A DNA stretch of 64,000 nt from IMG/VR virus record IMGVR_UViG_3300031485_000046, one strand, 5' to 3'. This stretch comes from a virus. Below are positions 11,845-63,045 of this stretch, piece after piece. Within the stretch, counting starts at the first letter, position 1, and each line of letters opens with the position of its first letter. Both the position numbers and the translations under genes were made by a program. The notes under the pieces were generated by a model. It searched no databases. It saw only the letters and a program-made list of their open reading frames with translations, and was not told the DNA's origin.

Positions 11845-11845
11845 G

Positions 11846-12238: not shown

Positions 12239-12267
12239 TTGACAGGATACGGTTAAGGATATATACT
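12239..12267 (+). promoter_or_regulatory. sigma70-like promoter TTGACA-N17-TATACT upstream of terminase genes
   Basis: TTGACA 12239..12244, 17-nt spacer, TATACT 12262..12267; SD GAAAGGAG and ATG 12348 downstream. Confidence 0.6.
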
Positions 12268-12347
12268 ATTTCAATCTACCTGTAATATTTTCATCTCGAA
12301 AAAATGTATATAATAGAAGCCAATTTTGAAAGGAGTGTTTCATACAC

Positions 12348-19426: not shown

Positions 19427-19645
19427 TCATTTCGCCCGCTCCTCCCAGAACCGTCTGCGTCGCTCCTCCCTGTGACGCTTGATATTCTCCCGCACCCTCT
19501 GCGTGCGGGGCGGGAACGTGTTCAGATGGGTCAGCACCGGCTCCACGCTGACAGCTCTGCCGAATTCCCTCTCCCATTCCTGGGCGTAGATTTCCTCGTA
19601 GGATAACATTTCGCGAAATCTGAGCCCCGTGCATCGTCCGCTCAT
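19427..19645 (-). CDS. small basic hypothetical protein inside a GC-rich islet
   Basis: 72 aa ORF starting 1 nt after kdsB stop; local GC visibly about 60% versus ~40% surroundings; no recognised motif. Confidence 0.3.
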   Translation of the reverse strand: MSGRCTGLRFREMLSYEEIYAQEWEREFGRAVSVEPVLTHLNTFPPRTQRVRENIKRHREERRRRFWEERAK

Positions 19646-20436
19646 TCCTTACCCTCCTTTTTTTCTATAATTTCATCATATTCATTTTCTTTACCAGAGT
19701 TTATTATACAACGAACAGCTTCCAAATCAGCAGGAGTATCTACACTAGGTCCAACTTTTTTTGCTCTTGTTATTTCTACTTTAATGGAAAAATCATGTTC
19801 TAATATTCTGAGCTGTTCCAGTGATTCTGCTGATGCCAAAGGTGTTTGTGGCATTTTGGCATAATAATGGATTAAGAAACGTCTAGTAAATCCATAAATT
19901 CCTATATGTCGGTAGATGGGATATACTTCTTCCGGATCTCTAATAAAAGGGATAGGAGACCTACTGAAATATAAAGCATCTCCATTTATTCTGAATGCCA
20001 CTTTTACTACCGATGGATCATTGATAGTAGCGGTATCTGTAATAAGGGCACATATCGTAGCAGATTCCGTAGCCCTATTTTCAGTTTTATAAAATAATGA
20101 TATTACTTCATCAATCATACAAGGATTAAGTAATGGTTCATCCCCTTGTATGTTTATCACTATATTATTATTAGAGAATTTTTTAGCTATTTCCACAACT
20201 CTACTAGTTCCGTTTGTATGATTTGGAGAAGTTAGCATAGCTTCTCCACCGAAATTATTTACAGCCTGCACGATTCTTTCATCGTCAGTAGCTACAATCA
20301 ACCGGTCAAGTAAAGTAGATCGTGAGGCTCGCTCGTACACTCTCTGGATCATTGTTTTTCCGCATATATCAGCTAGAGGTTTACCGGGGAGCCTTGTAGA
20401 ATTGTATCTAGCGGGGATAACTCCTAAAGTTATCAT
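19642..20436 (-). CDS. kdsB: 3-deoxy-manno-octulosonate cytidylyltransferase (CMP-Kdo synthetase)
   Basis: 264 aa; near-collinear with KdsB hallmark segments 'VIPARYNSTRLPGKPL', 'VATDDERI', 'QGDEPL', 'ALYFSRSPIP', 'HIGIYGF', 'EQLRILE', 'VDTPADLE' (compared from memory with E. coli KdsB). Confidence 0.85.
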   Translation of the reverse strand: MITLGVIPARYNSTRLPGKPLADICGKTMIQRVYERASRSTLLDRLIVATDDERIVQAVNNFGGEAMLTSPNHTNGTSRVVEIAKKFSNNNIVINIQGDEPLLNPCMIDEVISLFYKTENRATESATICALITDTATINDPSVVKVAFRINGDALYFSRSPIPFIRDPEEVYPIYRHIGIYGFTRRFLIHYYAKMPQTPLASAESLEQLRILEHDFSIKVEITRAKKVGPSVDTPADLEAVRCIINSGKENEYDEIIEKKEGKE

Positions 20437-27015: not shown

Positions 27016-27729
27016 ATGCGGGCGTGGAATACTCCGAGGATATGGGATAAAGGTGAATGTTGGATAATAGGAGGAGGACCTTCTATTATGCGACAGTTCC
27101 ATATTCCTGAGAATGTGATTGAGGCGGTTAGAGAAAAAAGATTACCGCTTTCTGCATATTCTCCGTACATGGAAAGCATTCATTCTAAGCATATCATCGG
27201 AGTAAACATGGCATTCCAGCTAGGAAATTGGGTTGATTTTTGTTTCTTCGGAGACGATGGTTGGTTTCGGGACCATAGAAAAGAATTAGCCCAATTTACT
27301 GGTGTAAGGGTATCTTGCGCACCTATGTTCAGTAAAAATACGTACCATGCAGATAATGGGGAACGTATTAAGTACCTAGCGCAGGATCCTAAAAAATCAC
27401 ACGGTATTAGTGAAGTACCTTACACCGTATGTTGGAATGCAAATAGCGGAGCGGCGGCAATCAGCCTAGCTTCTCATCTAGGTGCTAAAAAGATTGTTCT
27501 GTTAGGATTCGATATGCAGTTAGATCCTAATGGAAATAGTCATTGGCACAAAGAGTATCAAATGAATCCAGCAAAACGATCCGTGTTTCCTCGACACCTT
27601 AGAGGGTTTCCAATTATCGCCGCGGATGCTAAACGGATGGGCATCGAAATACTAAATGCCTCACCTGAAAGCGTAATAGACGATTTTCCTAAAATGACAG
27701 TGGAGGCGATATTGAATGGTTCTCCATAA
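27016..27729 (+). CDS. CstII/Maf-like (GT42/DUF115-type) ulosonic-acid transferase-like protein
   Basis: 237 aa; 'IIGGGPS' N-terminus and 'NSGAAAISLASHLGAKKIVLLGFD' core resemble CstII 'IIAGNGPS' and 'SGVYMCAVAIALGYKEIYLSGIDF' (recalled, not searched). Confidence 0.55.
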   Translation: MRAWNTPRIWDKGECWIIGGGPSIMRQFHIPENVIEAVREKRLPLSAYSPYMESIHSKHIIGVNMAFQLGNWVDFCFFGDDGWFRDHRKELAQFTGVRVSCAPMFSKNTYHADNGERIKYLAQDPKKSHGISEVPYTVCWNANSGAAAISLASHLGAKKIVLLGFDMQLDPNGNSHWHKEYQMNPAKRSVFPRHLRGFPIIAADAKRMGIEILNASPESVIDDFPKMTVEAILNGSP

Positions 27730-28330
27730 AAACAATATCGCGGTTATAGGACACGGTCCTAGCACTCGTGGAAGGAAACTAGGCAGTTTCATTAACCTTT
27801 GTGATACGGTCATTCGCATGATCGAATGTGATTGGCAGGATGCAGAAGATTACGGTAGTAAATATACGATCGGTGTATATGCTACGGGAGGATCTGACGA
27901 TTTTACAAAGGTGATTGAACGAAAGCCTTCTCTTTGCTGGTGGGTGTACGTTGCGGCTGGAACCCGTCCTTCTACGGCGATGAATGATGATACAGTAGAT
28001 GCTCCAGGTGTTGCGGGTCGTCCGATACGGTGGTTACGAAGAACCGTATGGGATTGGATCGGTGATAATAAAAAGTTCTCTAGAGGTACTGCTGCCGCGA
28101 TTGCGTCTATGGCGATCCTAAAACCCACTACAGTTCATTTAGTTGGGTTTGATGATGTTGCAAGGGGTGGAATGCTGAAAGGAGCATATCATCCTCCTGA
28201 GTTGCAACAGTACCTCAAAGAACAAGGAAAGACACTTGCCAGAAGTGAAACAGACCATGATTGGAATAATGAAGGCACCGTACTCCAACGTGCCGCAGAC
28301 TATTACGGAGTTGAGGTGAATTTTCTATGA
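27716..28330 (+). CDS. CstII/Maf-like transferase-like protein (paralog of 27016..27729)
   Basis: 204 aa; 'IAVIGHGPS' and 'SRGTAAAIASMAILKPTTVHLVGFD' mirror the upstream paralog. Confidence 0.55.
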   Translation: MVLHKNNIAVIGHGPSTRGRKLGSFINLCDTVIRMIECDWQDAEDYGSKYTIGVYATGGSDDFTKVIERKPSLCWWVYVAAGTRPSTAMNDDTVDAPGVAGRPIRWLRRTVWDWIGDNKKFSRGTAAAIASMAILKPTTVHLVGFDDVARGGMLKGAYHPPELQQYLKEQGKTLARSETDHDWNNEGTVLQRAADYYGVEVNFL

Positions 28331-29565
28331 AGACAATATCAGAGGAATATATTCGCCTTAATTCTGAGGTACACAACCAGCGGAGAGGGTACGGTAATTC
28401 AGCCAATCGGTTTGCTAAGGACATTGGGCTTGTTTTGCATCAGTTCCACACAATGTCTTTTCTGGATTATGGATGCGGAAAAGAATCTTTGATCCGTTGT
28501 ATTACGAAGGACTATCCGTATCTTGCCCAGAGAGCAAAGTATGGAGCATACGATCCAGCTATACCGCACCGGTCCGTTAAGCCGGAAGAGCAGTATGATA
28601 TGGTTATTTCTACAGATGTTCTTGAACACATTGAACCTGAATATCTGTCAGCCGTGCTGGAAGAGATCAAAGGATATGCTAAAAAAGGCGTCTATCTGAA
28701 TATCTGTATGCGACCGTCAGGAGATATTCTACCTGATGGTCGAAATGCCCATCTGATCGTTAAAGATGCCCCGTGGTGGCGTGAAACACTATCCAAAGCG
28801 TTTGAAGGATGGGCACTGGAAGAACGGGATGTACTTGACTCTTGGCGCAATTATACAGTAGTATTGACACCACCTAAGATTCAAAAGCCATTAAATATCG
28901 TCTGTTTCTACTGGAAAGGTACGAGTAATCGGTACCCAGGATGGGACGATGTGGATTTGGCAAAGATTTATGTCAACAATCTGTATAATGGCGTCCGTCG
29001 AAATTTGAACAAGGATTACAAGTTCATCTTGTTTTCCAATGATATTGAAGATGGGCTGGATCCACATGTAGAGATACGAAAGTTCCAGCCTATCTCGTGG
29101 ACAGGGTGCAATCCTAAGTTGTATGTGCATAGCCCAGATGCAGGATTAGAGGGAAGGGTGCTTACGTTTGATATGGATACTATCATCGTAGGAGACCTTA
29201 CTAATTTTGCAGAATACGATGGGGCTTTCACTACACGGATGGAACCTGACCGAAGAAGAGTAACAGCAGGAGACCTGCTAGGATTTGAAGCAGGTGAAAC
29301 GTACCAGTTATGGGAGAATTATAAGAATATCTCCAAGTATGCTGAAAAGTATCAAGGAGATGAAAGGGAGATCTACAAACTTCTTTGGAAACATTTGCTG
29401 TACTGGCAAGAAGAAATACCCGGGCAGTTGGTTTCTTATAAAGGTGATGTTCGTCCTAATCAGAACAGACTGCCTAGAAATGCAAGAATTGTAAGTGCGC
29501 ACGGTAAGCCTCGTCCGCATGAGATCAATGCGGAATGGATTAAATCGTGTTGGTGGGGAAAATGA
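28327..29565 (+). CDS. class I SAM-dependent methyltransferase fused to a DxD-containing transferase-like domain
   Basis: 412 aa; MTase motif I 'FLDYGCGKES', motif II 'DMVISTDVLEHIEPE'; C-terminal 'LTFDMDTIIVGD' DxD-like region. Confidence 0.55.
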   Translation: MKTISEEYIRLNSEVHNQRRGYGNSANRFAKDIGLVLHQFHTMSFLDYGCGKESLIRCITKDYPYLAQRAKYGAYDPAIPHRSVKPEEQYDMVISTDVLEHIEPEYLSAVLEEIKGYAKKGVYLNICMRPSGDILPDGRNAHLIVKDAPWWRETLSKAFEGWALEERDVLDSWRNYTVVLTPPKIQKPLNIVCFYWKGTSNRYPGWDDVDLAKIYVNNLYNGVRRNLNKDYKFILFSNDIEDGLDPHVEIRKFQPISWTGCNPKLYVHSPDAGLEGRVLTFDMDTIIVGDLTNFAEYDGAFTTRMEPDRRRVTAGDLLGFEAGETYQLWENYKNISKYAEKYQGDEREIYKLLWKHLLYWQEEIPGQLVSYKGDVRPNQNRLPRNARIVSAHGKPRPHEINAEWIKSCWWGK

Positions 29566-30278
29566 AACCGTATGTAGAATCTCCCATTATCATAACAGGT
29601 TGTCCACGAAGCGGAACTAGCATCATTTCTGGGATGTTAGAAATATGTGGTGCATTTGCAGGAACTATTCCACAGCCTACGAAACACGAAACAAGAGGCA
29701 TGGGAGAGAATCGGGTTATATATGAGGATGTTGTTAAACCGTATATTCAGAGTTTGCAAGCGGATCCATCTGGACAATGGCCATTGATGGATTCTGAAAA
29801 ACTGATGATTCCTATCGACTGGGAATCAATGATTTCAGACGCCTTGCACAAGGATGGCTATATGGGAGGCAAATGGCTATATAAGAGTAATACTGCGGCT
29901 CTTATGTGGAAAGTGTGGTCCTACGCCTATCCTAGCGCCAAATGGGTCCTAGTACGCAGGCGTACAGGTGACATAGTTTCTTCATGTTTGCAGACCTCGT
30001 ATATGAAAGCATTCAAAAATCCTGCATATCGTAAGGAAATTGGAGCGGAAACAGAATCAGAAGCATGGATCCATTGGGTACATAAGTATGAAGAAGCCTT
30101 TGTAGGGATGTTGACTGCGGGAGTTAATTGTAAGGTTGTCTGGCCGGAAAGATTCGTAAGAAACGATTATCAACAGTTGTATGAAGTAATTGAATGGGTA
30201 GGGCTTGAATGGAAATCTTCTGTAGCAGATTATCTAGACCCAAAGCTATGGAAGAATGAACGGAAGGAGGAGTGCTGA
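29562..30278 (+). CDS. sulfotransferase (PAPS-dependent type)
   Basis: ATG 29562 overlapping upstream stop (ATGA); 5'-PSB-like 'IIITGCPRSGTS' and 3'-PB-like 'VRRRTGDIVSS'. Confidence 0.6.
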   Translation: MKPYVESPIIITGCPRSGTSIISGMLEICGAFAGTIPQPTKHETRGMGENRVIYEDVVKPYIQSLQADPSGQWPLMDSEKLMIPIDWESMISDALHKDGYMGGKWLYKSNTAALMWKVWSYAYPSAKWVLVRRRTGDIVSSCLQTSYMKAFKNPAYRKEIGAETESEAWIHWVHKYEEAFVGMLTAGVNCKVVWPERFVRNDYQQLYEVIEWVGLEWKSSVADYLDPKLWKNERKEEC

Positions 30279-33185: not shown

Positions 33186-35819
33186 ATGGCGATAGGTGGT
33201 ACTGCTAGTCTTGGAACACTTGTTACCACACTTGGTGTTAATTCAAAACCACTGTTGACTGCGGAAAAGCAGGTAGCCACATTTGCTAATAGAACGAATA
33301 CGTTGATGGCGTCTGTCCGTAGGACAATGATGACCGTATTCGCTACTGTTGGTGTGGGCCGTCTTGCTAAAGGATTTCTTGATGCCGCCGTATCTGTGGA
33401 AAATTACAAAGTATCTTTGAACGCCGTTATCAAGGACGCACAAAAAACGGAAGCTGTATTCCAAGACCTTTTCAAATGGGCGTCCATCAATCCTATTGAT
33501 ACGGATGATGCTATTAAATCATTTGTTCGTCTGAAAACAGCTGGTGTGGAAAATACAAAAGCCGCTGTTGTCGCCGCGGCAGATGCGGCAACAGTTATGC
33601 AGAAACCTGTTGAATACGTAGCAAATGCGATGGTTTCTACGAATAATAAGATGCTTCGGCAGATAGGTGTACAGCTTGACCGTACAGGTAAAACAGCTAT
33701 TATCCGAAGTGGTAAAGTACGAATTGAAGTTGAAAAAGATATAGACAAGATCCGTCAAGGCATTATCGAGGTTCTTCAAAAGAATTTCGGTGGTGCGATG
33801 GATGCTTTCAAAAATACCTGGAGAGGTTCTCTGAATACCATGAAAGGTCTTTGGTGGACTTTCATGGCGGAAGTTATGGGAACAAACAATTCAGGAGGTC
33901 CTTATGAAACATTGGTCAAAGGGATAAACAGGGTTCGGGATGCTTGGATAGAATGGAGAGAAACTACGGATTATACAGAATTTGTAGCAAATACCCAAGC
34001 AGTATTTTCAGCCATGATTGATGGGATGATAAAGGGTATTGAGATGTTAGTAAAAGGGTTTAAGTGGTTGCTTGATAATCTAGAGATGGTAAAAACAGCG
34101 ATTATTGTACTTGCAAGTGCGAGAGTGATGGGGCTTCTTATCCGTTCCTTTGCTCTCCTTCGTACTGAATTAATTGCAGGAAGTGCAGCCACTTCGTTAT
34201 TTATGAAGGCGATATATGCGCTCAGGCTTGCATTTCTTGAACTACGCACGGCAAATACAATTTTAGGAGGGCTAAAAGGGGCACTTGCCGCTTTGGGGCT
34301 AGGGCCGGGTGGTTTGTTAATCGGAGCAATCGGTGGTTTGGTACTCCTTGCGGAAAATTTGAAACCTCCGTTCCAAGTTGCGTATGATGAGATTCGCAGA
34401 TTCAAGCAGGAATTACGCACCATCCCTGTAGACAAGATTAAGGAGATTGTTGATCTTAGTTATTCCATGGGTGGGTTTGGGATGGGGGGAAATTATAAAG
34501 CCTCCATAGCGCAAGCAGTACAAAATGAAACAGGTAGAACATTGGCTGAAATAAAAACACAAGCTGGTAAAATGAAAGCTATGTGGAATTACATGAAGCA
34601 AAAAGGGTATGGGGATAAGATATATGTAGAGCCAGAAACAACAGATCAACCTAGTATGGGCGGCGGTGAATCTAAGTATAAAAAACTCATCCAGCAAATG
34701 AAGGATGAGGCAAAATATCTTGGTGCAAACGTACAAGCCTTTCTTCCTATACTGGATCAATGGGCATCTAAGATGAAACCTCTTTCTGAGGATTGGAAGC
34801 TGATTAAAGATTATGCTGTGGAAATAAGAACAGGAATGGCTAAAGAAGCTGGGAAAGAAGCCGCTGATACAATGAAACGGCTGGAAGAGCAAATAAAATT
34901 GCAAAAGGAAGCGAGAGAAGCGGCGGAACAAGGAGTAGAAAAGTTCTGGAGCACCGCGGCTAATGGATTTTCGCAAGGACTTATTAAAGGTCAAGAGTAT
35001 TTCCAGATGCTCACAAATGAATTTGAAAAATTGAAAGAAGCGGTAAATGCAGAAGCCGGTGGGTTTTTGAATATGGAAGATATATTCAATTGGACTGAAC
35101 CGATGTGGACTATATTTTCTGAATTGCAGAGTGTGGGAGGACATCTTGCTAATCTTGACCTTACTAGGCTCAACGAGCAGTTGGAAAAAGGGGTTCTTTC
35201 TCAAAAAGAGTGGAATGCGGCCGTACAGGAATTACTCGACAAATACTCCGCGCTTCCTTCTGTCGTGGAACAAGTAAACAACGCTCAGCAAAACACAAAG
35301 AAGACCTCCGACGAGTTCGGAATAAGCGCAAAACTCTGGGCGAACGACCTCTCACAAGGACTTGCACAAGCCATTGTCAACGCCGAAGACCTGGGTGACG
35401 CGCTGCGGAATATTGCCAAGTCCATAGCAGGGAGTTTTTTACAAAAGCTCATCGGTGGATGGATCGGCGGTTTATTCGCCGACGGCGCGGCCTTTCAAGG
35501 CGGGAGCGTCATCCCGTTCGCAAAAGGTGGTATCGTGGGCCGCCCGACAATCTTCCCTATGGCTCGCGGCATGGGCTTGATGGGGGAAGCTGGCCCGGAG
35601 GCGGTCATGCCGTTGACACGGACAGCAGGGGGCGAGCTTGGCGTTAAGGCAGAGGGTAACGGCAGCGGCGAGATGAATATCACCATGAATATCAACGCCG
35701 TTGATAGCCGCTCCTTCGTGGAGATGATGCGGTCGAACAGGGCGAGCGTTGAAAGCATCGTTGTGGAAAATATTATGAAAAACGGGGCTGTTAGGAGTGC
35801 TATGAGGGGGATGGCGTAA
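33186..35819 (+). CDS. tail tape measure protein
   Basis: 877 aa, alpha-helical/Gly-rich; lambda gpH-like C-terminus 'GGSVIPFAKGGIVGRPTIFPMARGMGLMGEAGPEAVMPLTR'; composition shifts AT-rich to GC-rich near 35200. Confidence 0.85.
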   Translation: MAIGGTASLGTLVTTLGVNSKPLLTAEKQVATFANRTNTLMASVRRTMMTVFATVGVGRLAKGFLDAAVSVENYKVSLNAVIKDAQKTEAVFQDLFKWASINPIDTDDAIKSFVRLKTAGVENTKAAVVAAADAATVMQKPVEYVANAMVSTNNKMLRQIGVQLDRTGKTAIIRSGKVRIEVEKDIDKIRQGIIEVLQKNFGGAMDAFKNTWRGSLNTMKGLWWTFMAEVMGTNNSGGPYETLVKGINRVRDAWIEWRETTDYTEFVANTQAVFSAMIDGMIKGIEMLVKGFKWLLDNLEMVKTAIIVLASARVMGLLIRSFALLRTELIAGSAATSLFMKAIYALRLAFLELRTANTILGGLKGALAALGLGPGGLLIGAIGGLVLLAENLKPPFQVAYDEIRRFKQELRTIPVDKIKEIVDLSYSMGGFGMGGNYKASIAQAVQNETGRTLAEIKTQAGKMKAMWNYMKQKGYGDKIYVEPETTDQPSMGGGESKYKKLIQQMKDEAKYLGANVQAFLPILDQWASKMKPLSEDWKLIKDYAVEIRTGMAKEAGKEAADTMKRLEEQIKLQKEAREAAEQGVEKFWSTAANGFSQGLIKGQEYFQMLTNEFEKLKEAVNAEAGGFLNMEDIFNWTEPMWTIFSELQSVGGHLANLDLTRLNEQLEKGVLSQKEWNAAVQELLDKYSALPSVVEQVNNAQQNTKKTSDEFGISAKLWANDLSQGLAQAIVNAEDLGDALRNIAKSIAGSFLQKLIGGWIGGLFADGAAFQGGSVIPFAKGGIVGRPTIFPMARGMGLMGEAGPEAVMPLTRTAGGELGVKAEGNGSGEMNITMNINAVDSRSFVEMMRSNRASVESIVVENIMKNGAVRSAMRGMA

Positions 35820-36151
35820 TGGCAGAGACATTTTCCTATTCGCCTCTCTATGCGTATCAAAGAGGATTAAATCATAATGTCCTGATAACGGAGTTTGAAT
35901 CAGGAAAAGAGCAACGTAAGTATTTAGGAGTTCGTGCTAGGACGTGGACACTCGGATTCCGAGCCGACGTTGCTACCATCCAGGGAATCGAGGATTTCTA
36001 CAATGCCCGTGGTGGTAATTACGAGGCGTTCAACTGGACACCTCCGGGAGGAAGCGCCATTTCCGTCCGGTTTGAGGAAGGGAGCCTGTCGGTCAGTTAT
36101 TACGGCTCTCAGTACGGCGAATGTGAAGTCACATTGAGGGAGATATTATGA
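35819..36151 (+). CDS. minor tail protein, lambda gpM-like
   Basis: 110 aa; 'FYNARGGNYEAFNWTPP' matches lambda M 'FLEEHGGWKSFLWTPP' pattern (from memory). Confidence 0.65.
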   Translation: MAETFSYSPLYAYQRGLNHNVLITEFESGKEQRKYLGVRARTWTLGFRADVATIQGIEDFYNARGGNYEAFNWTPPGGSAISVRFEEGSLSVSYYGSQYGECEVTLREIL

Positions 36152-36690
36152 GCAGGGCAGGAGCGGCATATATAGCAGAATCGGCGAATGACGAACTGAA
36201 GCCTATCCTGCTGGTGCGTGCGCTGGATATTCCACAGGTGCTCAATCCTTCGGTCAAGGTCAGTCTGTATTTGACCAATGCGCAAACGGACATATCCTTT
36301 TTTGACGAGAATGATAACACCCAATTGTACACTGCATGCGCCCTGTCCTATGACCAGGTGCAGGCGTCCACGGATAATGAGATCGGCACGGTAAACGTGC
36401 GGCTGGACAACGTATCAGGGACGTTTACCAGCCTTGCGAAGGACTACCTTTTACGCGGCGTGAGAATGCATCTGCTGGAGGCGTTCCAGGATACGTTATT
36501 GTCTCCTGCCGGGGCGCGGTGGATATTCCAGGGACATCTCGAAAAAGCGATTATAGGGATGTCAGCCATCGAGGTGATGGTCAAGGCGGATTTTTCTCTT
36601 TCGACGCGGGTTCCTCGCAGGCTCTACTGGGTGAAGGACTTCCCGCATCTCCCGTCTGCGAAAGACCCGCGGACGCTGGCGCTGAAATGA
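36148..36690 (+). CDS. minor tail protein, lambda gpL-like
   Basis: 180 aa between M-like and K-like genes; assignment mainly by synteny. Confidence 0.5.
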   Translation: MSRAGAAYIAESANDELKPILLVRALDIPQVLNPSVKVSLYLTNAQTDISFFDENDNTQLYTACALSYDQVQASTDNEIGTVNVRLDNVSGTFTSLAKDYLLRGVRMHLLEAFQDTLLSPAGARWIFQGHLEKAIIGMSAIEVMVKADFSLSTRVPRRLYWVKDFPHLPSAKDPRTLALK

Positions 36691-37073
36691 TCGGTATTCC
36701 GTGGAAGACGAAAGGGCGGGACCGGGACGGGATTGACTGCGTCGGTCTAGCCCTTCTCGCGCAAAAGGAGCTGTACGGGCGGGAGTATGACTTCCCATTT
36801 GACTACGACCCGGAGACGGGGGATGAGCGCGTTTTGCTCGACTGGCTGGAAGACATAGCTGATGAAGTGGACATACCGCAGAATGGAGACCTGGTGATTT
36901 ATCGGATGCCGGGAATTGACGGGATTGTAAAACATCACATCGGTACGGTCGTTGGCGAGGCATTGTTGCACATTTATCCGGGGAAGAGTTCTCGGAAGGT
37001 GAAAATCAGGATGAAACGGATCTACAAAATCTACCGGGCGAAGGAGGTGGAGACATGCCGGGAGCGGCAATAG
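36687..37073 (+). CDS. tail assembly protein with NlpC/P60 peptidase domain (lambda gpK-like)
   Basis: Start at ATG 36687 (ATGA overlap; track ORF begins upstream at 36519); Cys-His-His triad context 'DCVGL', 'KHHIGTV', 'LLHIYPG'. Confidence 0.65.
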   Translation: MIGIPWKTKGRDRDGIDCVGLALLAQKELYGREYDFPFDYDPETGDERVLLDWLEDIADEVDIPQNGDLVIYRMPGIDGIVKHHIGTVVGEALLHIYPGKSSRKVKIRMKRIYKIYRAKEVETCRERQ

Positions 37074-40000
37074 GGGCGCTGTTAGGATTTGCCTTGTCAG
37101 GAACTGGGCTTGGGATAGGACTTGCAGGATTCCTTGGCGTTTCAGCCGGTACCCTCTGGATGGTTGGGGCCTCCCTCGGTTCGTTGTTCGACGGACCGGA
37201 TATCGACCTTGGAGGTTCGACGCCTAATTACACATTCGGACAGCTGTCGAATACGAAGAGCCAAATGCTCCCCATCCCCATCGTATACGGGCGGTGCAGG
37301 GTCGGCGGGAATGTGTTCATGCAGACGTTTTACGACGATACCTTGCAGAAAATGGATATGCTGGTCGGTGTTTCCGAAGGGCCAATCCAGTCCATAAAAT
37401 CCATTTACGCCAGCGACACGGAACTGACGGATGTAAACGGTGATATTACCCACGAATTGGAAGAGGTGACGCTGAACGTCCACCTCGGTGAACCAGGCCA
37501 GGTTGCTGACAGCCGAGACCCCAGCGGGAGCACATATGCGAATGTGGCTTATGTGGGGCTGACGCTGAAGGCGCAGGACGGGCTATCAGGCAACCCTACC
37601 ATATCGTCCATAGTGGAAGGGCGGAAGATATGGACGCCTGCTGGTACGATGTTTTCAAGGAACCCAGCGTGGATCGTCTATGACTTCCTGACCAATACCC
37701 GCTACGGCGTCGGCATTCCAACAGACCTGATCGACCTCGACTCATTCATGGCGTCCGCCGACTATTGTGACGCTCTGGTTGAGGGTGAACCTCGTTTCAC
37801 ACTGGATTATATCATCGACACTCAGCGACCGGCGGTGGACCATCTGCAATCCATGCTGGCTTGTTTTAGAGGGTATTTCCTCGCCCGGGACAAGATCGAA
37901 TTGCACGTGGAGCAGGCCGGGAGTGTGTACAAGGCCCTTGGGCCGGATAATTTCGTGAAGGACAGCTTCACCTGGTGGCAGAAGAGCGGCGACGATTCAC
38001 CGAACAGAATCACCCTGGAGTGGATCGACCCGGACAACCATTACGAGCAGTCCTCGGCTGTGTTTGAGTATCAGGAGGATATGCAGGCTCGTGGTGTTTT
38101 TGAAAAATCATTCTCCGTGCTCGGAGTAACCCGCTCGTCCCAGGTAGGTCGGTTGGGTAATTACCTGATGGAAACAGCAAAGCGGGTACAGAATTTCTGC
38201 TCGTTCCAGGTGGGACTCCAAGATGCCGACATCGAGGCAGGGGAAATCATATCCCTGACATATCCCGATTTTACGGGGTGGGATTCGAAACCCTTCCGGG
38301 TTGTGGCGGTGCAGGACCACGGTGATTCGGGTTTAGTTACAATCACCTGTGCGGAATATGATGCGACGGTATACGGTGATGATGCGCTGCCTGTGCAGAC
38401 ACCCATAGTAGACCCGACGCCCGTTACCTATGACGATGTGTACTCCCTCGCTCTTGAGGATATGGGGCATATCGCCGATGACGGGACATGGTTCCCGGTA
38501 ATTCGTGCTACGTGGCAGAACCCGTCCGACTACACGCCCGCTGCACTTAACATCCGCTGGCGATATAGCGGCGATACGGTATGGAACCTGCATCTGAACA
38601 CGTCCCGGCTGACCACGCAGACCAACATTACCGGGCTGACTACCGGAGAGGATCTGGAAGTTTGGGTTAATTGCGTTAAGCCAAATAATGGCAGGGAGAC
38701 AACCGGGGCGACGGCAACGCTGTCCGTAGGACGGGATGTTACCCCTCCGGCGGCCCCAACTTCCCTTACTGCAACGGGATGGTTTGGAAGCATTAATCTG
38801 GAATGGGTGAATCCTGCTGACAGGGACCTTAGTCATATCGAGGTATGGGAAAATGCCATTGATAACAGGGCAACCGCAGTAAAAATTGCCGAGACAAAAG
38901 GGACATCATACCAGCGGTATGTAGGGTCGTTCATTACTCGTTACTACTGGGTGCGGGCGGTTGATTTCTCAGGCAACGTGGGCGCATGGAACGCTACGGC
39001 AGGCACGGCTGGCAACTCTGACCAGAAGAACCATCAGGATTTTGTAGATTTGGTGCTACAGGAAAATCCGTATCTCGCAGAAGTACAGACAGACCTCAAC
39101 TCAGCGATAGTTTTAGGCGACACAAACATTAAGACAATTGACCTGCCTGGCTATGAGCAGAGGATAGCCAACCGCATTGATGAGGTCAACGATGACATAA
39201 TGACGCAGGTCAACACGTATGCTGACGGAACTATCGATGCGATGCTTGACGCTTCCGAAGCAATAAGTGCAGTAAGAGATGCGGGGATTATTACCGATCC
39301 TGTTACGGGATTGACAAGCATTTTCGCCCTTGATGCATACAAGACAGCAAATGACGCAAGAGTATCAAACGTTGAGATTGACCTTGATGCAGTCGAATCC
39401 ACTCTTACATCTAAGGTCACTCTGGCACAGGTGGACGAGCGGATCGCAGGGGCTGTCTTCGGCGATGCAGGGGAATTGCTCCTGTCCGGCGTGGATGCAC
39501 GGGTGTCGCTGGTAGAGGAGACCCTTGACGGTGTTGAGGCCGAACTTCTCGAAAAGGCAACATACGTGGAGGTGAACGAACTCGGCGGGCGAATCGGCAC
39601 AGCAGAGTCAAGGTTAGACGGTCATGATGCGGAGATTGCCATGCTTGCCACGTCACAGGAACTTGACGAGGTAGAGAGCCGTGTGACAACGGCAGAGCTT
39701 AATATCGATGCCCTTGAAGGATCAATTGTCAATAAGGTTGCCAGCACGGTAACGATTACACAAGACCAAGAGGAGCTAATAGCACAGGGCCTGGTTGATG
39801 CGATGCTAAACGACCGTGAGGCACAGACCGATGCTAAGGCAAAAACGCAGAGTGCATTAGCAATAGCGGAGTCTGAACTGTACGCCCATGTCAATGATGA
39901 GATGGAAGCAGAGGCGGGGCAGAGATTGTTGTTGGCGGCGAAAGTTGACAATAATCAAGCGACTATCCAGAGTGAGTCTGTCGCACGAGCAAATGCTGAT

Positions 40001-40525
40001 TCCGCCATAGCCTCTAATGTATCAACATTGTCAACCACCGTAGGGAACAACACATCAGCGATACAGACAATTGACAGTTCAGTAGACGGGATTCAATCAA
40101 AACACGCCGTTAAAATCGATACAAACGGATATGTCACAGGCTATGAACTTATCGGCACAGGCGCATCAAGCTCCATGGTGTTCCACGTTGATAATTTCCT
40201 AGTCGGCAAGCCGGGTACAACCAACAAATATCCGTTTGTAATCGGCACGGTAGACGGTGTATCGCGGGTTTCTATGGACTCGGCGTTTATACAGGATGCG
40301 GCAATCGAGAATGTGAAGATTGCAAATGCAACAATAACAAGGTTAAAAATTGAAGGACACACTCTGACTGAGGTCGCATCGTATTACGTTGCAGCAGCGA
40401 AGGATATGTTAGAGGACGCAACGTGGACTTACTACACGGATATCGACCAAATAACAATTACAACAGAAGCGGGTTATCCAGCACCGATAACGTGGACGGC
40501 AGTGCTCAATACAGGAGCAGGGTGA
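37055..40525 (+). CDS. host specificity/central tail fibre protein, lambda gpJ-like
   Basis: 1156 aa; 'NPAWIVYDFLTNTRYGVGIP' matches lambda J 'NMAWCLWDMLTHPRYGMG' region; coiled C-terminal region; SD AGGAGGTGGAG. Confidence 0.8.
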   Translation: MPGAAIGALLGFALSGTGLGIGLAGFLGVSAGTLWMVGASLGSLFDGPDIDLGGSTPNYTFGQLSNTKSQMLPIPIVYGRCRVGGNVFMQTFYDDTLQKMDMLVGVSEGPIQSIKSIYASDTELTDVNGDITHELEEVTLNVHLGEPGQVADSRDPSGSTYANVAYVGLTLKAQDGLSGNPTISSIVEGRKIWTPAGTMFSRNPAWIVYDFLTNTRYGVGIPTDLIDLDSFMASADYCDALVEGEPRFTLDYIIDTQRPAVDHLQSMLACFRGYFLARDKIELHVEQAGSVYKALGPDNFVKDSFTWWQKSGDDSPNRITLEWIDPDNHYEQSSAVFEYQEDMQARGVFEKSFSVLGVTRSSQVGRLGNYLMETAKRVQNFCSFQVGLQDADIEAGEIISLTYPDFTGWDSKPFRVVAVQDHGDSGLVTITCAEYDATVYGDDALPVQTPIVDPTPVTYDDVYSLALEDMGHIADDGTWFPVIRATWQNPSDYTPAALNIRWRYSGDTVWNLHLNTSRLTTQTNITGLTTGEDLEVWVNCVKPNNGRETTGATATLSVGRDVTPPAAPTSLTATGWFGSINLEWVNPADRDLSHIEVWENAIDNRATAVKIAETKGTSYQRYVGSFITRYYWVRAVDFSGNVGAWNATAGTAGNSDQKNHQDFVDLVLQENPYLAEVQTDLNSAIVLGDTNIKTIDLPGYEQRIANRIDEVNDDIMTQVNTYADGTIDAMLDASEAISAVRDAGIITDPVTGLTSIFALDAYKTANDARVSNVEIDLDAVESTLTSKVTLAQVDERIAGAVFGDAGELLLSGVDARVSLVEETLDGVEAELLEKATYVEVNELGGRIGTAESRLDGHDAEIAMLATSQELDEVESRVTTAELNIDALEGSIVNKVASTVTITQDQEELIAQGLVDAMLNDREAQTDAKAKTQSALAIAESELYAHVNDEMEAEAGQRLLLAAKVDNNQATIQSESVARANADSAIASNVSTLSTTVGNNTSAIQTIDSSVDGIQSKHAVKIDTNGYVTGYELIGTGASSSMVFHVDNFLVGKPGTTNKYPFVIGTVDGVSRVSMDSAFIQDAAIENVKIANATITRLKIEGHTLTEVASYYVAAAKDMLEDATWTYYTDIDQITITTEAGYPAPITWTAVLNTGAG

Positions 40526-40742
40526 AACGTTACTTTCGGGGCAAGGTTGCTCCGTAACGGTGTAGTAATCAACACAAGGGACGCTTTTTATTACTCTTTA
40601 TATCAAGGGATGTCTCCGGTTGTTTTTAGTTTTGTTGATACAGGGGCATCGACAGGATCAACTACTTATAAGATACAGGTTAAGCGGGTTCGGTCTCTGG
40701 ACTGTCATGTTTCGGCATCGGAGAGGACGATGGTGGTTCATT

Positions 40743-41102
40743 ATGCCTACAGATAGGGGAACATGGTTTACGTATTATTCTCAAAACGGGGAGATTTACG
40801 GGAGCTATTCAAATACACGCGAGAACATGCTGATTGACCTAGCTGACAAGTCATACATCGAAGCACCCGACAATGACATTGACATCAGCAATAAATATGT
40901 AGACAACGGAGAAGTTAAAATCAGACCTAACATGAACCTTGCCATTATTGGAGGGGTAATCACGGGCATACCGCAGGGCGCAACGGTCACACTGGGCGAG
41001 CAGTCTTTTACTGTCGATGATGGGGAAGCTGACATCGAGGGATATACAGGGATAGTTAAAATAACATGCTGGCCCTATCTTGATGCGGAGGTGACGCTAT
41101 GA
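40743..41102 (+). CDS. hypothetical tail-associated protein (start uncertain)
   Basis: Track ORF 40620..41102; internal ATG at 40743 preferred because upstream part is low-complexity; weak RBS. Confidence 0.35.
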   Translation: MPTDRGTWFTYYSQNGEIYGSYSNTRENMLIDLADKSYIEAPDNDIDISNKYVDNGEVKIRPNMNLAIIGGVITGIPQGATVTLGEQSFTVDDGEADIEGYTGIVKITCWPYLDAEVTL

Positions 41103-41293
41103 AAATAAACTACAAGCCGACCTCTGCGGAGGTGCGGAAAAAACGCAAAGAGGACTATCTGCAACGCTTCCCGGTTGAACGGCAGTTGGAAGCCCTCACG
41201 GAAGCGGCATCGGGCAGACCGGAAAAACTGAATGAACTCATGCAGGGCCTCGCTGAAATACGCAGGGCCTTGCCATTTGCGAAGGAGGAATGA
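41099..41293 (+). CDS. hypothetical small protein
   Basis: 64 aa, overlapping start/stop with neighbours in tail-fibre region. Confidence 0.45.
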   Translation: MKINYKPTSAEVRKKRKEDYLQRFPVERQLEALTEAASGRPEKLNELMQGLAEIRRALPFAKEE

Positions 41294-42699
41294 ATTTGAG
41301 CTGGTATAGAACAGGTACCGTAGCCGTAACAAACGGAAGTAAGACAGTCACAGGAGTAGGTACGTTGTGGACAACGGCAGTCAATGCTGGTGACGCTTTC
41401 GCCCTTGTTGACGCAAATCTAAACCCGACTGATGCATGGTATGAGGTGGAGTCCGTCACGAACAATACGACTCTGGTGCTGAAGCAGAGTTACGCCGGGA
41501 CAACCGGGAGCAATAATCAATATTGTGTATTTAACATGGTCGGCAACATGACCACGCCGTCATTTGCTCAGAGGTTGGCTACGTTCTTCGCATCCTTCCA
41601 GAGTTTGATCGACAAGCCGACGACCACACCTACGGCATCCAGCATCCCGGTTGCGGACTCCGGCGGGAAAATCGCCGACGGATGGGTTCCTGACACTATA
41701 GCACGTCTCGCCTCACCAGCACTCACTGGCTCCCCCACAGCCCCCACGCAGTCAGCGAGCGATGATAGCACGAAGATTGCCACGACTGCGTTTGTGAAGG
41801 ATCAGGTGGCATCGGAGACTGTTGCCGGAATGGTTGAACTCGCCACGTCAGCAGAGGTTTTAGCAGGGGAGGATACAGAAAGGGCGGTAACACCTGCGGG
41901 CTTAAAAGCGGGATTAGAAGCATCTTACGCTATCTTTGACTCTGACCGCATTTATGATGGCGTGAACCTCGAAACCAAGTTTGCCGCTGAGATAGCGGGA
42001 TATACAGATGTTTGGGCATGGATAAAGGCACGTATTGCAGCAGGAGATTACAGTGGTCTGCATGTCGGTGATTACGTCCAGTTTACGGTAGGGTCTGATA
42101 CGGTTCAAGCTCAGATTGCAGGAATGGATACGTATTATAGGACTGGAGACTCCCCACTCGGTCACCACATTGATTTTATCTCTAGGGATTGCCTGACGGC
42201 AACATATCAATGGAATACAACAGGCAACAACAACGGCAACTCATCTAATCCATCTCCGTGGATGGTGTCTGCACTCAAAGCAAGCCTTGACGGACTTGTA
42301 ACAAGCCTCCCAGCGGGGTTGCAGTCTGTTGTGGTTACAAAACGAGCATTTATTGAAACACGATATACAAGTGGGTCAACGTTGATTGACTCGACATCGT
42401 GGGCTTGGAACAACATGGGCAAGTTGTGGGTTCCGTCTGAGTTCGAGGTTTTTGGCACTATAGTTTGGGGGACACGTGGATACAGTAATAACGGCGGGGT
42501 GCAGTATCCTATTTTTGGGAACTCATGGAAAAACAGGATGAAAGGCGCAGGGCATAACGGGGAGCGCACCGTCTGGTGGTTGTCTTCCGTCTATAGTGGC
42601 AATTCTGAGTCATGTTGCAATGTCGGCAACGGCGGGATTATCGGCCGCAGTAACGCATCCGACGCTTATAGGGTGCCGCTCTGCTTCCGAATATCGTAG
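41290..42699 (+). CDS. tail fibre protein (side fibre/receptor-binding)
   Basis: 469 aa; contains phage tail-fibre repeat-like segment 'SPALTGSPTAPTQSASDDSTKIATTAFV'; Gly/Asn/Ser-rich C-terminus. Confidence 0.7.
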   Translation: MNLSWYRTGTVAVTNGSKTVTGVGTLWTTAVNAGDAFALVDANLNPTDAWYEVESVTNNTTLVLKQSYAGTTGSNNQYCVFNMVGNMTTPSFAQRLATFFASFQSLIDKPTTTPTASSIPVADSGGKIADGWVPDTIARLASPALTGSPTAPTQSASDDSTKIATTAFVKDQVASETVAGMVELATSAEVLAGEDTERAVTPAGLKAGLEASYAIFDSDRIYDGVNLETKFAAEIAGYTDVWAWIKARIAAGDYSGLHVGDYVQFTVGSDTVQAQIAGMDTYYRTGDSPLGHHIDFISRDCLTATYQWNTTGNNNGNSSNPSPWMVSALKASLDGLVTSLPAGLQSVVVTKRAFIETRYTSGSTLIDSTSWAWNNMGKLWVPSEFEVFGTIVWGTRGYSNNGGVQYPIFGNSWKNRMKGAGHNGERTVWWLSSVYSGNSESCCNVGNGGIIGRSNASDAYRVPLCFRIS

Positions 42700-42702
42700 G
42701 AG

Positions 42703-43230
42703 GTGATGGATATGAACGACATGGAGTACAACAATGCTGTACAGATACTGCGACAAACGGATTATGTCGCGCTGAAGCTCGCAGAGGGCGCAGACCCTCT
42801 CGAATATGCCGAGGTCTTAAAACTCCGTCAATCGTGCCGAGATAAAATTAACGATTGGAACGGAGAAGATTTCATCGCACCGACATTTGAGGATTTGAGA
42901 AACAGAAAATATCGGGAAATCTCACAGGCCCACAAGGAGCATGTGGCAGGAAGCATCATGACATCCCTCGGCTTCCCCATGCAGTTCGACATGAAGGACA
43001 ATCTCATGGTGGAAGGAACCATAAAACTGGCACAGGCAAGCGGAGCAACTACAATTTACCTGACTGACGCAGAGGATGTCACTCATTACGACATCCCTCT
43101 TGCAGACGCACAGGCCGTGTTGCTTGAGATGAGTACTGCATTTGCACAGGCTCATGCTAAAAAACAGACGCTTCGGGAGCGGACAGCAGAAGCACAGACC
43201 CAGAGCGATCTGGACAAGATAAGCTGGTAG
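42703..43230 (+). CDS. putative tail fibre assembly protein
   Basis: 175 aa immediately downstream of tail fibre gene; assignment by position. Confidence 0.45.
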   Translation: MMDMNDMEYNNAVQILRQTDYVALKLAEGADPLEYAEVLKLRQSCRDKINDWNGEDFIAPTFEDLRNRKYREISQAHKEHVAGSIMTSLGFPMQFDMKDNLMVEGTIKLAQASGATTIYLTDAEDVTHYDIPLADAQAVLLEMSTAFAQAHAKKQTLRERTAEAQTQSDLDKISW

Positions 43231-43333
43231 GAGGGGGATCGTGTGGTAGTGATTCAGTGTCAGGATTTCTGGCCGATTGTTCTTGGCGGTGCGATCATCT
43301 TTATATTGGTGATGATGCTAAGGAGGTGAAAAA

Positions 43334-43720: not shown

Positions 43721-44097
43721 AGTCCCAGAACATAGAACTTCGTGAACTTCGGGACGATATAAAAGAGATCAAGGATACGATGAAAGAACTGGCAAAGGTA
43801 GCAAGTACCCAAGCCCTTCAAAATCAACGCCTTGACATGGTAGAAAGGGATATGTCCAATATTAAAGATGATTTGCTTTCAATCCATCGAGAACTTGTTA
43901 TTATTGATAAACGATGCCTTGAACGATCACCTGTTATAGAGTTTGGGAAAAAACGAATGGATAGTCCGGATAAGTATATGTCTAATGATACGTGGTGGAC
44001 AATGTTTATCGGTAGTGCAGTTCGGAATGGGGTATGGATCGTTTTAACGGGTTTGATTGTTCCGTTGATTCTTTATTTAACGGGGGTGAAAAAATGA
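43708..44097 (+). CDS. lysis-associated membrane protein (holin/spanin candidate)
   Basis: 129 aa, coiled N-terminal region and single C-terminal hydrophobic segment 'VWIVLTGLIVPLILYL'. Confidence 0.45.
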   Translation: MDEIESQNIELRELRDDIKEIKDTMKELAKVASTQALQNQRLDMVERDMSNIKDDLLSIHRELVIIDKRCLERSPVIEFGKKRMDSPDKYMSNDTWWTMFIGSAVRNGVWIVLTGLIVPLILYLTGVKK

Positions 44098-44633
44098 ATC
44101 TCCTGGAAGTGGTACCTGCACTTGATTCAATTATTGGTAAGATCATTCAAGATCCAAATCAAGCAGGGAATCTAAAACTGGAACTAGAAAAATTGGATGT
44201 TCAAAAAGATATTGAACGGTATAAAGTACAGCAGAGTTGGTTGAGCAATAAATCCGTATACGTTGCGGGAGCAATCCCTACAATCCTATGGCTTCTGTCA
44301 GTAGTGGTAGCATTCAACCACATCATCGCTCCACTACTTATAGGAATGGGCATGAATATTCCTGTTCTGGAACTACCTTCGTATTATACTGATCTTGCTG
44401 GTACGATTGTTCTTGGTTTGTTTGCGAAGAAGGCGTGGGATGGTAGCACTATTGAGAAGTTAGGTAAAAAACCTAAAGAAGAAAAGGCTGTAGAAGTAAA
44501 GGTAGTAGAAAAAGTAAAAGTTCCTGTTGTGGACGAATCTGGAGAAGAGCCTGTTTCTGAAATACCGAAAGATGATCCAGACTATTACAATAAGCGGTAT
44601 GAGGAACTTATCAAGAAATTTAACAAGACATAA
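44094..44633 (+). CDS. holin-like membrane protein
   Basis: ATG 44094 overlapping upstream stop; two hydrophobic segments then charged Lys/Glu-rich tail; track ORF 44034..44633. Confidence 0.45.
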   Translation: MNLLEVVPALDSIIGKIIQDPNQAGNLKLELEKLDVQKDIERYKVQQSWLSNKSVYVAGAIPTILWLLSVVVAFNHIIAPLLIGMGMNIPVLELPSYYTDLAGTIVLGLFAKKAWDGSTIEKLGKKPKEEKAVEVKVVEKVKVPVVDESGEEPVSEIPKDDPDYYNKRYEELIKKFNKT

Positions 44634-47191: not shown

Positions 47192-47842
47192 TTATCTAAT
47201 CTGGAATGTTTTTGTAAATCCGTTTCTACTTTTGCACCATCCTACTAGCCAATAACAAAATGGTGTATCACTCAATGCGATCAATATTTTAACAACCCAC
47301 TGGCTCATTATCATGGAAAATAAAACAGGCATGGGCATAATTCCATAAAATGCAATAACGATAAAGATTACCGTATCGAAAAACTGGCTAGATATGGTAC
47401 CTACGTTATTTCTAAGCCACAAATGTTTTCCATGTGTTAAATCCTTTAGCTTATGAAATACCCATACATCATTCAGCTGGCTGACAAGATAAGCAGTCAA
47501 TGAAGCTCCAGTAATCCTACCAACTCTTCCAAAGAGTTCTGTAAAGAATTCCTGCCTCTCATAGAAAGGAGCGGCGGGAAGCATAACAGCGATAAACCCT
47601 AGTGACATAGCAAGCAGACTACAAAAGAATCCTGCCCATACAACCCTTGTAACTACTTTCTTACCCCATACCTCTCCAATCACATCAGTCATAAGAAAAG
47701 TAATTGGGTATGCGATAACACCTGCTGGTAGAATGAAATCCCCAAACATAAACAGTTTTGTTGCCAATACGTTTGCAGTTACCAACGATGTCACAAATAC
47801 TGCAACCAGTGTGATGAATGTTCTTGGAATCTTGAGTTCCAT
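47192..47842 (-). CDS. yhhQ: queuosine-precursor transporter, YhhQ/DUF165 family
   Basis: 216 aa polytopic membrane protein; segments 'MTDVIGEVWG', 'ASLTAYLVSQLNDVWVFHKLKD', 'SQFFDTVIFIVIAF' align with E. coli YhhQ (from memory). Confidence 0.7.
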   Translation of the reverse strand: MELKIPRTFITLVAVFVTSLVTANVLATKLFMFGDFILPAGVIAYPITFLMTDVIGEVWGKKVVTRVVWAGFFCSLLAMSLGFIAVMLPAAPFYERQEFFTELFGRVGRITGASLTAYLVSQLNDVWVFHKLKDLTHGKHLWLRNNVGTISSQFFDTVIFIVIAFYGIMPMPVLFSMIMSQWVVKILIALSDTPFCYWLVGWCKSRNGFTKTFQIR

Positions 47843-63044: not shown

Positions 63045-63045
63045 C

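Follow-up and report, generated by a model that had tools for sequence, protein, structure and literature searches.

Where does a phage obtain the tip of its tail, and what do the seams look like when that tip has come from elsewhere? This question is raised by IMGVR_UViG_3300031485_000046, an IMG/VR virus record of which we analyzed a stretch of 64,000 nucleotides (nt; hereafter the window), in which the tail-tip and host-recognition genes form a block, positions 35157-43313, richer in guanine plus cytosine (GC) than its surroundings. We consider it likely that this block is a horizontally exchanged tail-tip/host-recognition cassette, residing in an AT-rich, virulent-style siphovirus genome of more than 80 kb and originating in a GC-rich phage pool. 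A first-pass annotation of the letters had proposed a horizontally exchanged tail-tip module with the composition of higher-GC phages, and in that respect it was borne out. The cassette comprises the tape-measure C-terminus (~220 residues), the proteins in the gpM, gpL and gpK positions, an I-J fusion, two small open reading frames (ORFs), the tail fiber and a further ORF, g42703. The features on which the argument depends are these:

33186-35819 (+): tape-measure gene, 877 residues, with profile matches to Pfam and PHROG
33186-35156 (+): backbone-type, AT-rich part of the tape measure, residues 1 to ~657, delimited by GC at third codon positions (GC3) and nucleotide identity
35157-35172 (+): left crossover zone, tape-measure residues ~658-662, located by sliding identity and base-level alignment
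35157-35819 (+): GC-rich C-terminal part of the tape measure (GC3 0.60-0.74), with RcGTA and lambda C-terminal model matches
35819-36151 (+): gpM-like distal tail protein, 110 amino acids (aa); PF05939 at 40.5 bits against a gathering score of 39
36148-36690 (+): putative hub protein in the gpL position, 180 aa; only phrog_396 'minor tail protein' at 2.3e-5
36687-37073 (+): putative NlpC/P60-type peptidase in the gpK position, 128 aa; TIGR02219 phage_NlpC_fam at 6.9e-6, below the cut-off
37055-40525 (+): J, central fiber/tip attachment protein, 1156 aa, its N-terminus bearing a fused gpI-like plug; PF13550, PF09327 and phrog_31
40743-41102 (+): 119-aa ORF between J and the fiber; phrog_18216 at 5e-8; a gene call in the Logan contig
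41099-41293 (+): 64-aa ORF; a gene call in the Logan contig
41290-42699 (+): tail fiber, 469 aa; tail-fiber PHROGs in the N-terminal part, DUF6273 at residues 374-467
42703-43230 (+): g42703, 175-aa ORF 3' of the fiber; only phrog_3811 (unknown function) at 3.8e-5; GC3 0.55
43243-43329 (+): hydrophobic mini-ORF of 28 codons, with a GTG start behind an AGGAGG-like site, reading VVVIQCQDFWPIVLGGAIIFILVMMLRR
43313-43315 (+): right crossover point, ~20 nt 5' of the endolysin ATG, from alignments of the related loci L072 and L073
43334-43720 (+): M15 endolysin, the first AT-rich backbone gene on the right, outside the cassette; PF08291 at 1.5e-19, phrog_894 at 7e-35, GC3 0.36
44034-44633: holin-like gene matching the GTA holin family PF11351

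The GC content of 35157-43313 is 0.516, against 0.406 in the left flank (1-35156) and 0.402 in the right flank (43314-64000). Among all segments of 8157 nt in the 64,000 nt, the one with the highest GC starts at 35133, and non-overlapping segments of that size have a mean of 0.404 (standard deviation 0.022, maximum 0.447). GC3 is 0.49-0.65 in seven module genes versus 0.29-0.47 in 26 backbone genes (Mann-Whitney p = 3e-5); along the tape-measure ORF it is 0.28-0.44 through residue 700 and 0.60-0.74 thereafter, and both joints coincide with steps in GC and GC3. Since GC3 differs, the shift lies in synonymous positions and is not an amino-acid effect. The idea that the GC excess follows from protein composition alone is contradicted by the GC3 data; what we find is a compositional discontinuity at synonymous sites with sharp boundaries, as in a mosaic module. 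The GC and codon-usage check proposed in the first-pass annotation therefore showed a composition that is not uniform across the window and steps at both boundaries. Its value of about 40% GC elsewhere was accurate, whereas its value of about 55% for the block holds only for 35300-38900 and not for the whole (51.6%): GC is uneven inside, 53-58% at 35300-38900 and 44-47% around 39900-41000.

The two joints and the relatives of each side

To the left of the block, the window belongs with a set of backbone relatives, which we found among about 90 related loci (given here as L numbers) gathered from IMG/VR, JGI metagenomes, GTDB genomes and a 5.8-billion-protein collection. The AT-rich part of the tape measure, 33186-35156, is 94-95% identical at the nucleotide level to L001/L002/L003 and 76% to L004/L028, and has no nucleotide match in any GC-rich phage compared. 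In a sliding window, identity to L002/L003/L004 falls from 90-100% to ~50% at 35140-35170, exactly where identity to the GC-rich L013 rises from ~45% to ~80%. Base-level alignment follows the backbone through ~35156, with L002/L003/L004 diverging at ~35162 and L013 followed from ~35170. L001, the closest relative, switches 25-30 nt downstream of the other loci, its tape measure being 94.5% identical in the AT-rich part and only 85% in the GC-rich part. To the right of the joint, nucleotide identity of the tape-measure end is 77% with L013 (643 nt) and 83% with L091 (from 35475 on), and its amino-acid identity with L003/L004 is only 33-36% (33% for L003). The tape-measure frame is nonetheless kept intact in all hybrids, at a length of 877-889 residues. 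A recombination boundary inside the tape-measure ORF, as the first-pass annotation had proposed, was thus located at 35157-35172.

The right joint was equally sharp. In L072 (97.2%) and L073 (96.4%), the match to the window starts only at 43313 and 43315, respectively, and extends rightwards, L083 (90%) is aligned from 42916 and L074 (94%) from 43260. Directly to the right of the joint lies AAGGAGGTGAAAAAATG, which is common to all loci and is the sequence of the mini-ORF and ribosome-binding site; in the more distant L081/L025, an identity of 76% is kept just across the mini-ORF. The 3' end of the mini-ORF contains the junction, and its stop falls in the ribosome-binding site of the endolysin gene. 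The annotated end of the segment just before the AT-rich endolysin was confirmed by the joint at 43313-43315, and the proposed positions (35200, residue ~670 and 43260) lie ~50 nt or less from the joints mapped by comparison.

Such joints call for scrutiny of the assembly, since they fall on short conserved sequences, where assemblers break or mis-join, and related contigs end or start at or near them (L005 ends at 35156, L074 starts at 43260). However, that two phages of different GC were fused by an assembler at short shared sequences appears exceedingly improbable. The left joint is spanned by L001, which comes from another IMG sample and is 95.6% identical through 35689; the right GC boundary is crossed by L083 and L074; and tape-measure residues 51-877, the stretch compared, are 100% identical in the Logan assembly of SRR34859213. 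In other samples again, L002, L004 and L028 have the same AT-rich backbone and GC-rich tip with the tape-measure frame intact. Joints were reproduced in L001, L026, L083 and L074, and independent assemblies thereby cross both of them, so the chimera against which the first-pass annotation had cautioned is not what the segment is. Assemblers that break at points of divergence between co-occurring genotypes would be expected to leave contig ends such as those of L005 and L074.

Comparison of the relatives on either side of the left joint revealed a conflict. L001, L002, L003, L004/L028, L005 and L006-L008 are 84-96% identical to the window at the nucleotide level through the head, tail-shaft and tape-measure genes; this similarity ends or collapses at 35156-35213, and the allele enclosed by the same two joints differs from one sampled backbone relative to the next. 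L004/L028, with a backbone 85.6% identical to the window in nucleotides, share only 64% aa identity over J residues 1-600 and 70%, 75% and 79% over M, L and K (70-73% nt for the tip genes). The closest tip genes are found instead in GC-rich phages: in L092/L093 the identities are 93% (M), 95% (L), 94% (K) and 96% (J residues 1-600) aa, and 88.7% nt over 35475-39128; in L091 they are 93%, 97%, 85% and 93% aa, and in L088/L027 94%, 94%, 84% and 94%. These GC-rich phages are unrelated in their heads. None of 14 head and tail-shaft genes of the window has a tblastn match in the GC-rich loci with 8-10 kb of sequence upstream of the tape measure (L010, L013, L016, L021, L023 and L091), and the Pfam families differ: an HK97-type Phage_capsid, Phage_tube_2 and a PhageMin_Tail tape measure in the GC-rich phages, and a DUF6260 capsid, a lambda-type tail tube protein and TMP_3 in the window. 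In the identity matrices, the module is therefore nearer to unrelated genomes than to the backbone relatives.

This incongruence bears on whether repeated exchange is needed at all. Host-recognition genes are known for quick evolution, and the left joint lies at the same position in every backbone relative sampled, with GC-rich sequence to its right, a pattern also compatible with a single ancient acquisition, or a native module, that evolved fast without further exchange. We regard this explanation as quite improbable. M, L, K and the N-terminal part of J are 88% nt and 93-97% aa identical to unrelated GC-rich phages versus 70-73% nt and 64-79% aa to L004/L028, and greater similarity to outsiders is not something that rapid divergence can produce. 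Because the tip is closer to unrelated phages than to its own kin, simple fast divergence is excluded and repeated exchange is required. The best match also switches inside the cassette, from L013 to L092, at ~35475-35600: the closest relative is an L013-type tape measure from 35170 to ~35475 and L092/L091/L009 over 35475-39100. The distal part of the fiber and g42703 have no close relatives, so the receptor-binding end has a history separate from that of the tip hub. The first-pass annotation had envisaged one acquisition of a complete module; this did not stand, as the block is a patchwork and the backbone relatives carry different alleles between the same joints. A different allele in every backbone relative means a recurrently exchanged cassette and not a single event, and the cassette is a polymorphic island within the backbone lineage. 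Scans of IMG/VR from the right-hand side added little: that with the holin gave two loci, neither of which extends upstream of the lysis genes, and that with the endolysin gave distant relatives of at most 46% identity.

Source of the cassette and route of exchange

Composition and closest relatives place the origin of the cassette in a pool of siphoviruses of 56-59% GC with HK97-type heads and temperate-style features. L091 carries Xis-like HTH_17 and cI-like HTH_3 genes and a YqaJ/RecT pair; an ImmA-type peptidase/HTH gene is found in L088, which lies on a 66.5-kb contig (DPWY01000039.1 of GCA_003527665.1, 10 kb of which we examined) of a metagenome-assembled genome (MAG) of Synergistaceae, and the L088 phage was binned independently as Synergistales in the same run, SRR1562000 ('fermentation metagenome'). 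Gene content and these contigs point to temperate phages of GC-rich anaerobes as the donor pool. The genome-collection scan gave matches on MAG contigs only; one backbone relative, L028, is binned with a Mariniphaga MAG, which is weak host evidence, and IMG sample 3300009588 contains both a backbone-type locus (L007) and a GC-rich-type locus (L015). At the end of the L016 contig (21109-22074), a dprA-like gene (PF02481, 1.9e-53) lies in a stretch of 67% GC and may mark a prophage-host boundary.

The enterobacterial lambdoid donor named in the first-pass annotation found no support: the module and the upstream structural region, searched by megablast and blastn against 50,697 deposited phage records, gave no useful match, one 59-nt alignment aside, and J is 25-28% identical to lambda/HK97-type proteins. 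Nor could the acquisition be called recent, as the annotation had it. The nearest module is 88.7% identical in nucleotides (96% aa in the N-terminal part of J), with none closer in IMG/VR, the GTDB genomes or the 5.8-billion-protein collection, and from this it follows that the transfer was not very recent. We polarized substitutions over 35620-39075 with L010/L021/L023 as outgroups. Changes specific to the window number 43 from G/C to A/T (S>W) against 4 in the opposite sense (W>S), compared with 38:14 in L009 and 59:18 in L027, a bias exceeding theirs with Fisher p = 0.02 and 0.05, respectively. This S>W excess is consistent with amelioration in an AT-rich genome.

Several points weigh against the cassette having come from the GC-rich pool in the way proposed. 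The modules of L009, L088, L091 and L092 are 53-56% GC, and the genes upstream of them are 58-63%, 3-6 points higher; the nearest modules are also S>W-biased, so that traffic may have been two-way, and the amelioration signal is modestly significant. The MAG bin labels (Synergistaceae/Synergistales, Mariniphaga) are weak, and co-infection of one host is a deduction, as are the recombination pathway and the virulent lifestyle, the latter read from 64 kb of a genome that exceeds 80 kb; the functions given for the hub protein, the peptidase and g42703 are putative. The first two of these points would also suit a module circulating among backbones, with the nearest GC-rich phages having received theirs from AT-rich phages. 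Such reverse or two-way flow seems unlikely to us. In the more distant L010, L013, L016, L021 and L023, module GC is 57-59%, the same as in their backbones; none of the collections scanned yielded the proximal tip genes in an AT-rich form; and the S>W bias is strongest in the lineage of the window.

For a cassette drawn from the GC-rich pool, the route would be homologous or homeologous recombination in a co-infected or lysogenic cell. The left crossover would take place in a tape-measure patch conserved between the lineages (...QLEKGxLSQKEW...) and the right crossover at the conserved mini-ORF and ribosome-binding site ahead of the endolysin gene. A short conserved sequence is indeed present at each joint, and recombination genes occur in both the recipient backbone and the donor pool. 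Phage recombinases have been shown in experiments to recombine diverged sequences efficiently (PMC3945230). Recombinants would survive because the end of the tape measure stays with the tip proteins into which it docks, and its body with the tube and chaperones that belong to it. The lambda tip has a gpI tripod, bound to gpJ, on which gpH residues 818-842, the C-terminal helix, rest in the lumen (PMC10721106); by analogy with gpH, docking in the tip would fall to the C-terminal part of the window's tape measure. When that end moves together with M, L, K and I/J, all cognate contacts are kept, which makes the position of the left joint functionally sensible. A site-specific cassette, whether integron-like or exchanged by a fiber invertase, was rejected: the joint zones have no common direct or inverted repeat of 9 nt or more, and profile scans of the module ORFs showed no invertase or integrase.

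Tip proteins, lysis genes and the recipient backbone

The gene names given in the first-pass annotation were sound for the tape measure, M and J, and less so for L, which has one weak PHROG match, and K, which has a sub-cut-off match to NlpC/P60. In the tape measure, PF20155 (TMP_3) gives a weak match at residues 63-150. The end of the protein matches the RcGTA tape-measure model at 3e-31 (109 bits, cut-off 220; residues 720-845), which outscores the lambda C-terminal model over 35330-35720 (TIGR01541 tape_meas_lam_C, 7.5e-6, 25 bits against a cut-off of 105); it also matches the F2-pyocin tape-measure chain in the PDB (25vf_5, 1.7e-4). The gpM-like protein is 33% identical to lambda M in BLASTP (E 1e-4), including the F.WTPP motif, and 91-94% aa identical to L009/L027/L088/L091/L092.

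The gpL-position protein, 94-97% aa identical to its GC-rich relatives, has no match in Pfam, NCBIfam or the PDB, and its hhalign comparison with lambda L, from shallow alignments, is not significant (probability 0.4%). It contains one Cys among its 180 residues, with which a lambda-type Fe-S site would not form. The gpK-position protein (84-94% aa to GC-rich relatives) reaches E 0.11 with PF00877 and scores higher with RcGTA-type models than with lambda models; Cys18 and His83-84 are invariant across 6 homologues. The NlpC/P60 peptidase half is a plausible assignment. It has no JAB match, the two-domain architecture of gpK being absent, and its hhalign comparison with lambda K, for which the alignments are too shallow, is not significant. 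AlphaFold single-sequence models of the two proteins were unusable, with predicted local distance difference test scores (pLDDT) of 37 for the gpL-position and 42 for the gpK-position protein.

J carries both a hub domain and a central fiber domain, as a J-type protein should (PF13550, 51 bits against 23; PF09327, 29.7 against 22; phrog_31, 2.6e-95), and matches the F2-pyocin fiber (2.3e-26) and the lambda J chain 8iyk_J (5.7e-13) in the PDB. With 51.8 bits on NF049904, whose cut-off is 1950, it does not qualify as an equivalog of lambda J, and it is only 25-28% aa identical to the J proteins of HK97, mEp and lambda-type phages. The module has no separate gpI gene; the C-terminal plug sequence of gpI lies in the N-terminus of J, where residues 8-93 match a gpI-type pyocin tail assembly protein (PDB 25vf_9, 1.4e-4), residues 54-96 match phrog_32, and residues 58-90 are 39% identical to lambda I residues 173-205. 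In lambda, gpI has a ubiquitin-like N-terminal half that probably cooperates with the JAB domain of gpK; both are missing in the window (36687-37073 and 37055-37400).

Toward the distal end, similarity declines. J residues 1-600 are 93-96% identical to L091/L092/L088, and residues 601-1156 are 73-90% identical over partial length only. The 119-aa ORF is 55-57% aa identical to L009/L027/L091, and the 64-aa ORF 68-80% in GC-rich loci and L004. The N-terminal anchor of the fiber (residues 1-170) is 86-92% aa identical to L009/L019/L091/L092, and its distal part (residues 171-469) is at most 39-44% identical, to two viral contigs of 58% GC, L040 and L041. The sole relative of g42703 is L083 (76% aa from residue 51), and an exact-protein look-up returned no record. 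It had been annotated as a fiber assembly protein, for which phrog_3811 provides no functional evidence; a role as fiber chaperone is possible.

The mini-ORF, the endolysin gene and the holin-like gene are all AT-rich. The mini-ORF protein is conserved at 55-73% aa in relatives of either composition, AT-rich or GC-rich (L025, L027, L074, L078, L081 and L083), and may act in the lysis cassette as a small membrane protein. In L072 (1-3700), a lysis cassette 97% like that of the window is joined at 43313 not to tail fibers but to GC-rich genes on the opposite strand, among them a GH108-like lysozyme gene, so that, barring a mis-join in L072 itself, other genome arrangements use the right joint as well. 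In L073 (52-1183), AT-rich genes (40-43% GC), one of them a 139-aa fiber-like ORF, lie upstream of the endolysin gene. They may form an AT-rich alternative distal module; having no homologue in the window or in any compared locus, they cannot be called the 'native' fiber.

We infer from gene content that the recipient is a virulent-style siphovirus; its habitat would be an anaerobic fermenter or digester-type community. Among the backbone genes are those for the portal, terminase, DUF6260-type capsid and lambda-type tail tube protein; a complete replisome (SNF2 helicase, primase, clamp and clamp loader, UDG-exonuclease and an intein-bearing family-A polymerase); the recombination proteins RecA_N (RecA-like), SbcCD-like and PDDEXK; and ThyX, dUTPase and QueC. 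No integrase was seen among the genes of the window. By coordinates, the Logan contig reaches ~16 kb past the window, which gives a genome of more than 80 kb; a search of the window found no wrap-around or terminal repeat, and Rfam gave no family in the whole window or around 11800-12400.

Further observations concern the same backbone. The intein (PF14890 Intein_splicing, PT-HINT; residues ~189-308) lies within the polymerase domain of the family-A DNA polymerase gene at 56263-58107 (-). The genes for QueC (62349-63188, -) and Vut_1, a YhhQ-like queuosine-precursor transporter (47192-47842, -), suggest 7-deazaguanine modification of the phage DNA. Between the capsid and tail genes, 27016-30278 (+) encodes an MptE-like protein, a 412-aa methyltransferase-domain protein and a sulfotransferase, and a CMP-sugar-type cytidylyltransferase gene lies upstream at 19642-20436 (-); all four proteins are 87-99% aa conserved in the backbone relatives and may modify a glycan or the virion. 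At 11846-12100 (-), the first 97 nt of an 84-codon ORF are 91% identical to the otherwise divergent GC-rich L080 (1924-2020), a further small sequence common to both phage pools.

Known mosaics and the meaning of the exchange

What we describe is classical phage mosaicism together with a host-range island, and no new kind of biological system. As in lambdoid mosaicism (PMC3945230), a block of interacting genes is swapped as a unit between otherwise unrelated phages, with joints at short conserved sequences and recombinases in both partners. Co-transfer of interdependent phage genes has been described (PMC9836094), in a text that holds no direct precedent for the tail or the breakpoint. Unlike the partners in lambdoid mosaics, those seen here are ~17 GC points apart and have no detectable backbone homology. 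De Paepe et al. 2014 (PMC3945230) found coliphages to be without recent virulent-temperate mosaics, side-tail-fiber genes excepted; by contrast, the window pairs a virulent-style recipient with a temperate-style donor pool, at an identity of up to 88.7% nt, below their 90% criterion for a recent mosaic.

The gene order, tape measure-M-L-K-(I)-J, is common to the window, the lambda tip (PMC10721106) and the F-type pyocin tip (PMC13455828). Also as in lambda, M passes PF05939, J has a Phage-tail_3 hub and tail-tip fiber domains, a gpI-type plug is present, and the C-terminus of the tape measure aligns, below the cut-off, with Tape_meas_lam_C. Unlike in lambda, identity is only 25-33% where detectable, the I-like plug is fused to J and is without the N-terminal half of gpI, the K-position protein has 128 aa and no JAB/MPN domain, and the L-position protein has no cysteine cluster and no significant similarity to gpL; both the tape-measure end and the peptidase score better with RcGTA-type than with lambda models. 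On these sequence comparisons, the module would be a representative of the widespread M-L-K-(I)-J tip architecture and not a member of the lambdoid coliphage group.

Mizuno, Ghai and Rodriguez-Valera are said to have described, in 2014, metaviromic islands, hypervariable host-recognition regions in environmental phage populations. The present system likewise has a conserved backbone (~95% nt), a sharply bounded variable tail/host-recognition region and contigs that break at its edges; it differs in that its alleles are traceable to a compositionally distinct phage pool and its left edge lies inside an essential gene. The dairy streptococcal '987-group' phages carry a morphogenesis module derived from lactococcal P335 phages, the hosts of both groups being known, low-GC Firmicutes. 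There, too, a tail block was acquired from phages of another host group, but the compositional contrast in the window is much larger. Less routine in the present case are the 17-point GC contrast, the recurrence throughout the lineage of a joint within an essential gene, and the pairing of virulent-style with temperate-style phages.

A bolder proposal, which we hold to be rather doubtful, is that the AT-rich virulent-style lineage owns no tip at all and repeatedly imports one from resident GC-rich temperate phages, possibly prophages of Synergistaceae. If true, lineages ~17 GC points apart would routinely replicate in the same cells, or tips would cross host phyla, and the fixed tape-measure joint would be a general 'plug-and-play' interface that could guide the engineering of siphovirus host range.

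Collectively, these results document tail-tip exchange in nature in a very clean form, each joint being mapped to within ~15 nt. The tape-measure end, ~220 residues long, moves together with the tip proteins, a natural hybrid design that is consistent with the structure of the lambda tip and usable as a template for siphovirus host-range engineering. Such a cassette would mislead GC-based host prediction or binning of these phages. In an uncultivated anaerobic community, a conserved backbone draws many alternative tip alleles from a compositionally distinct pool.

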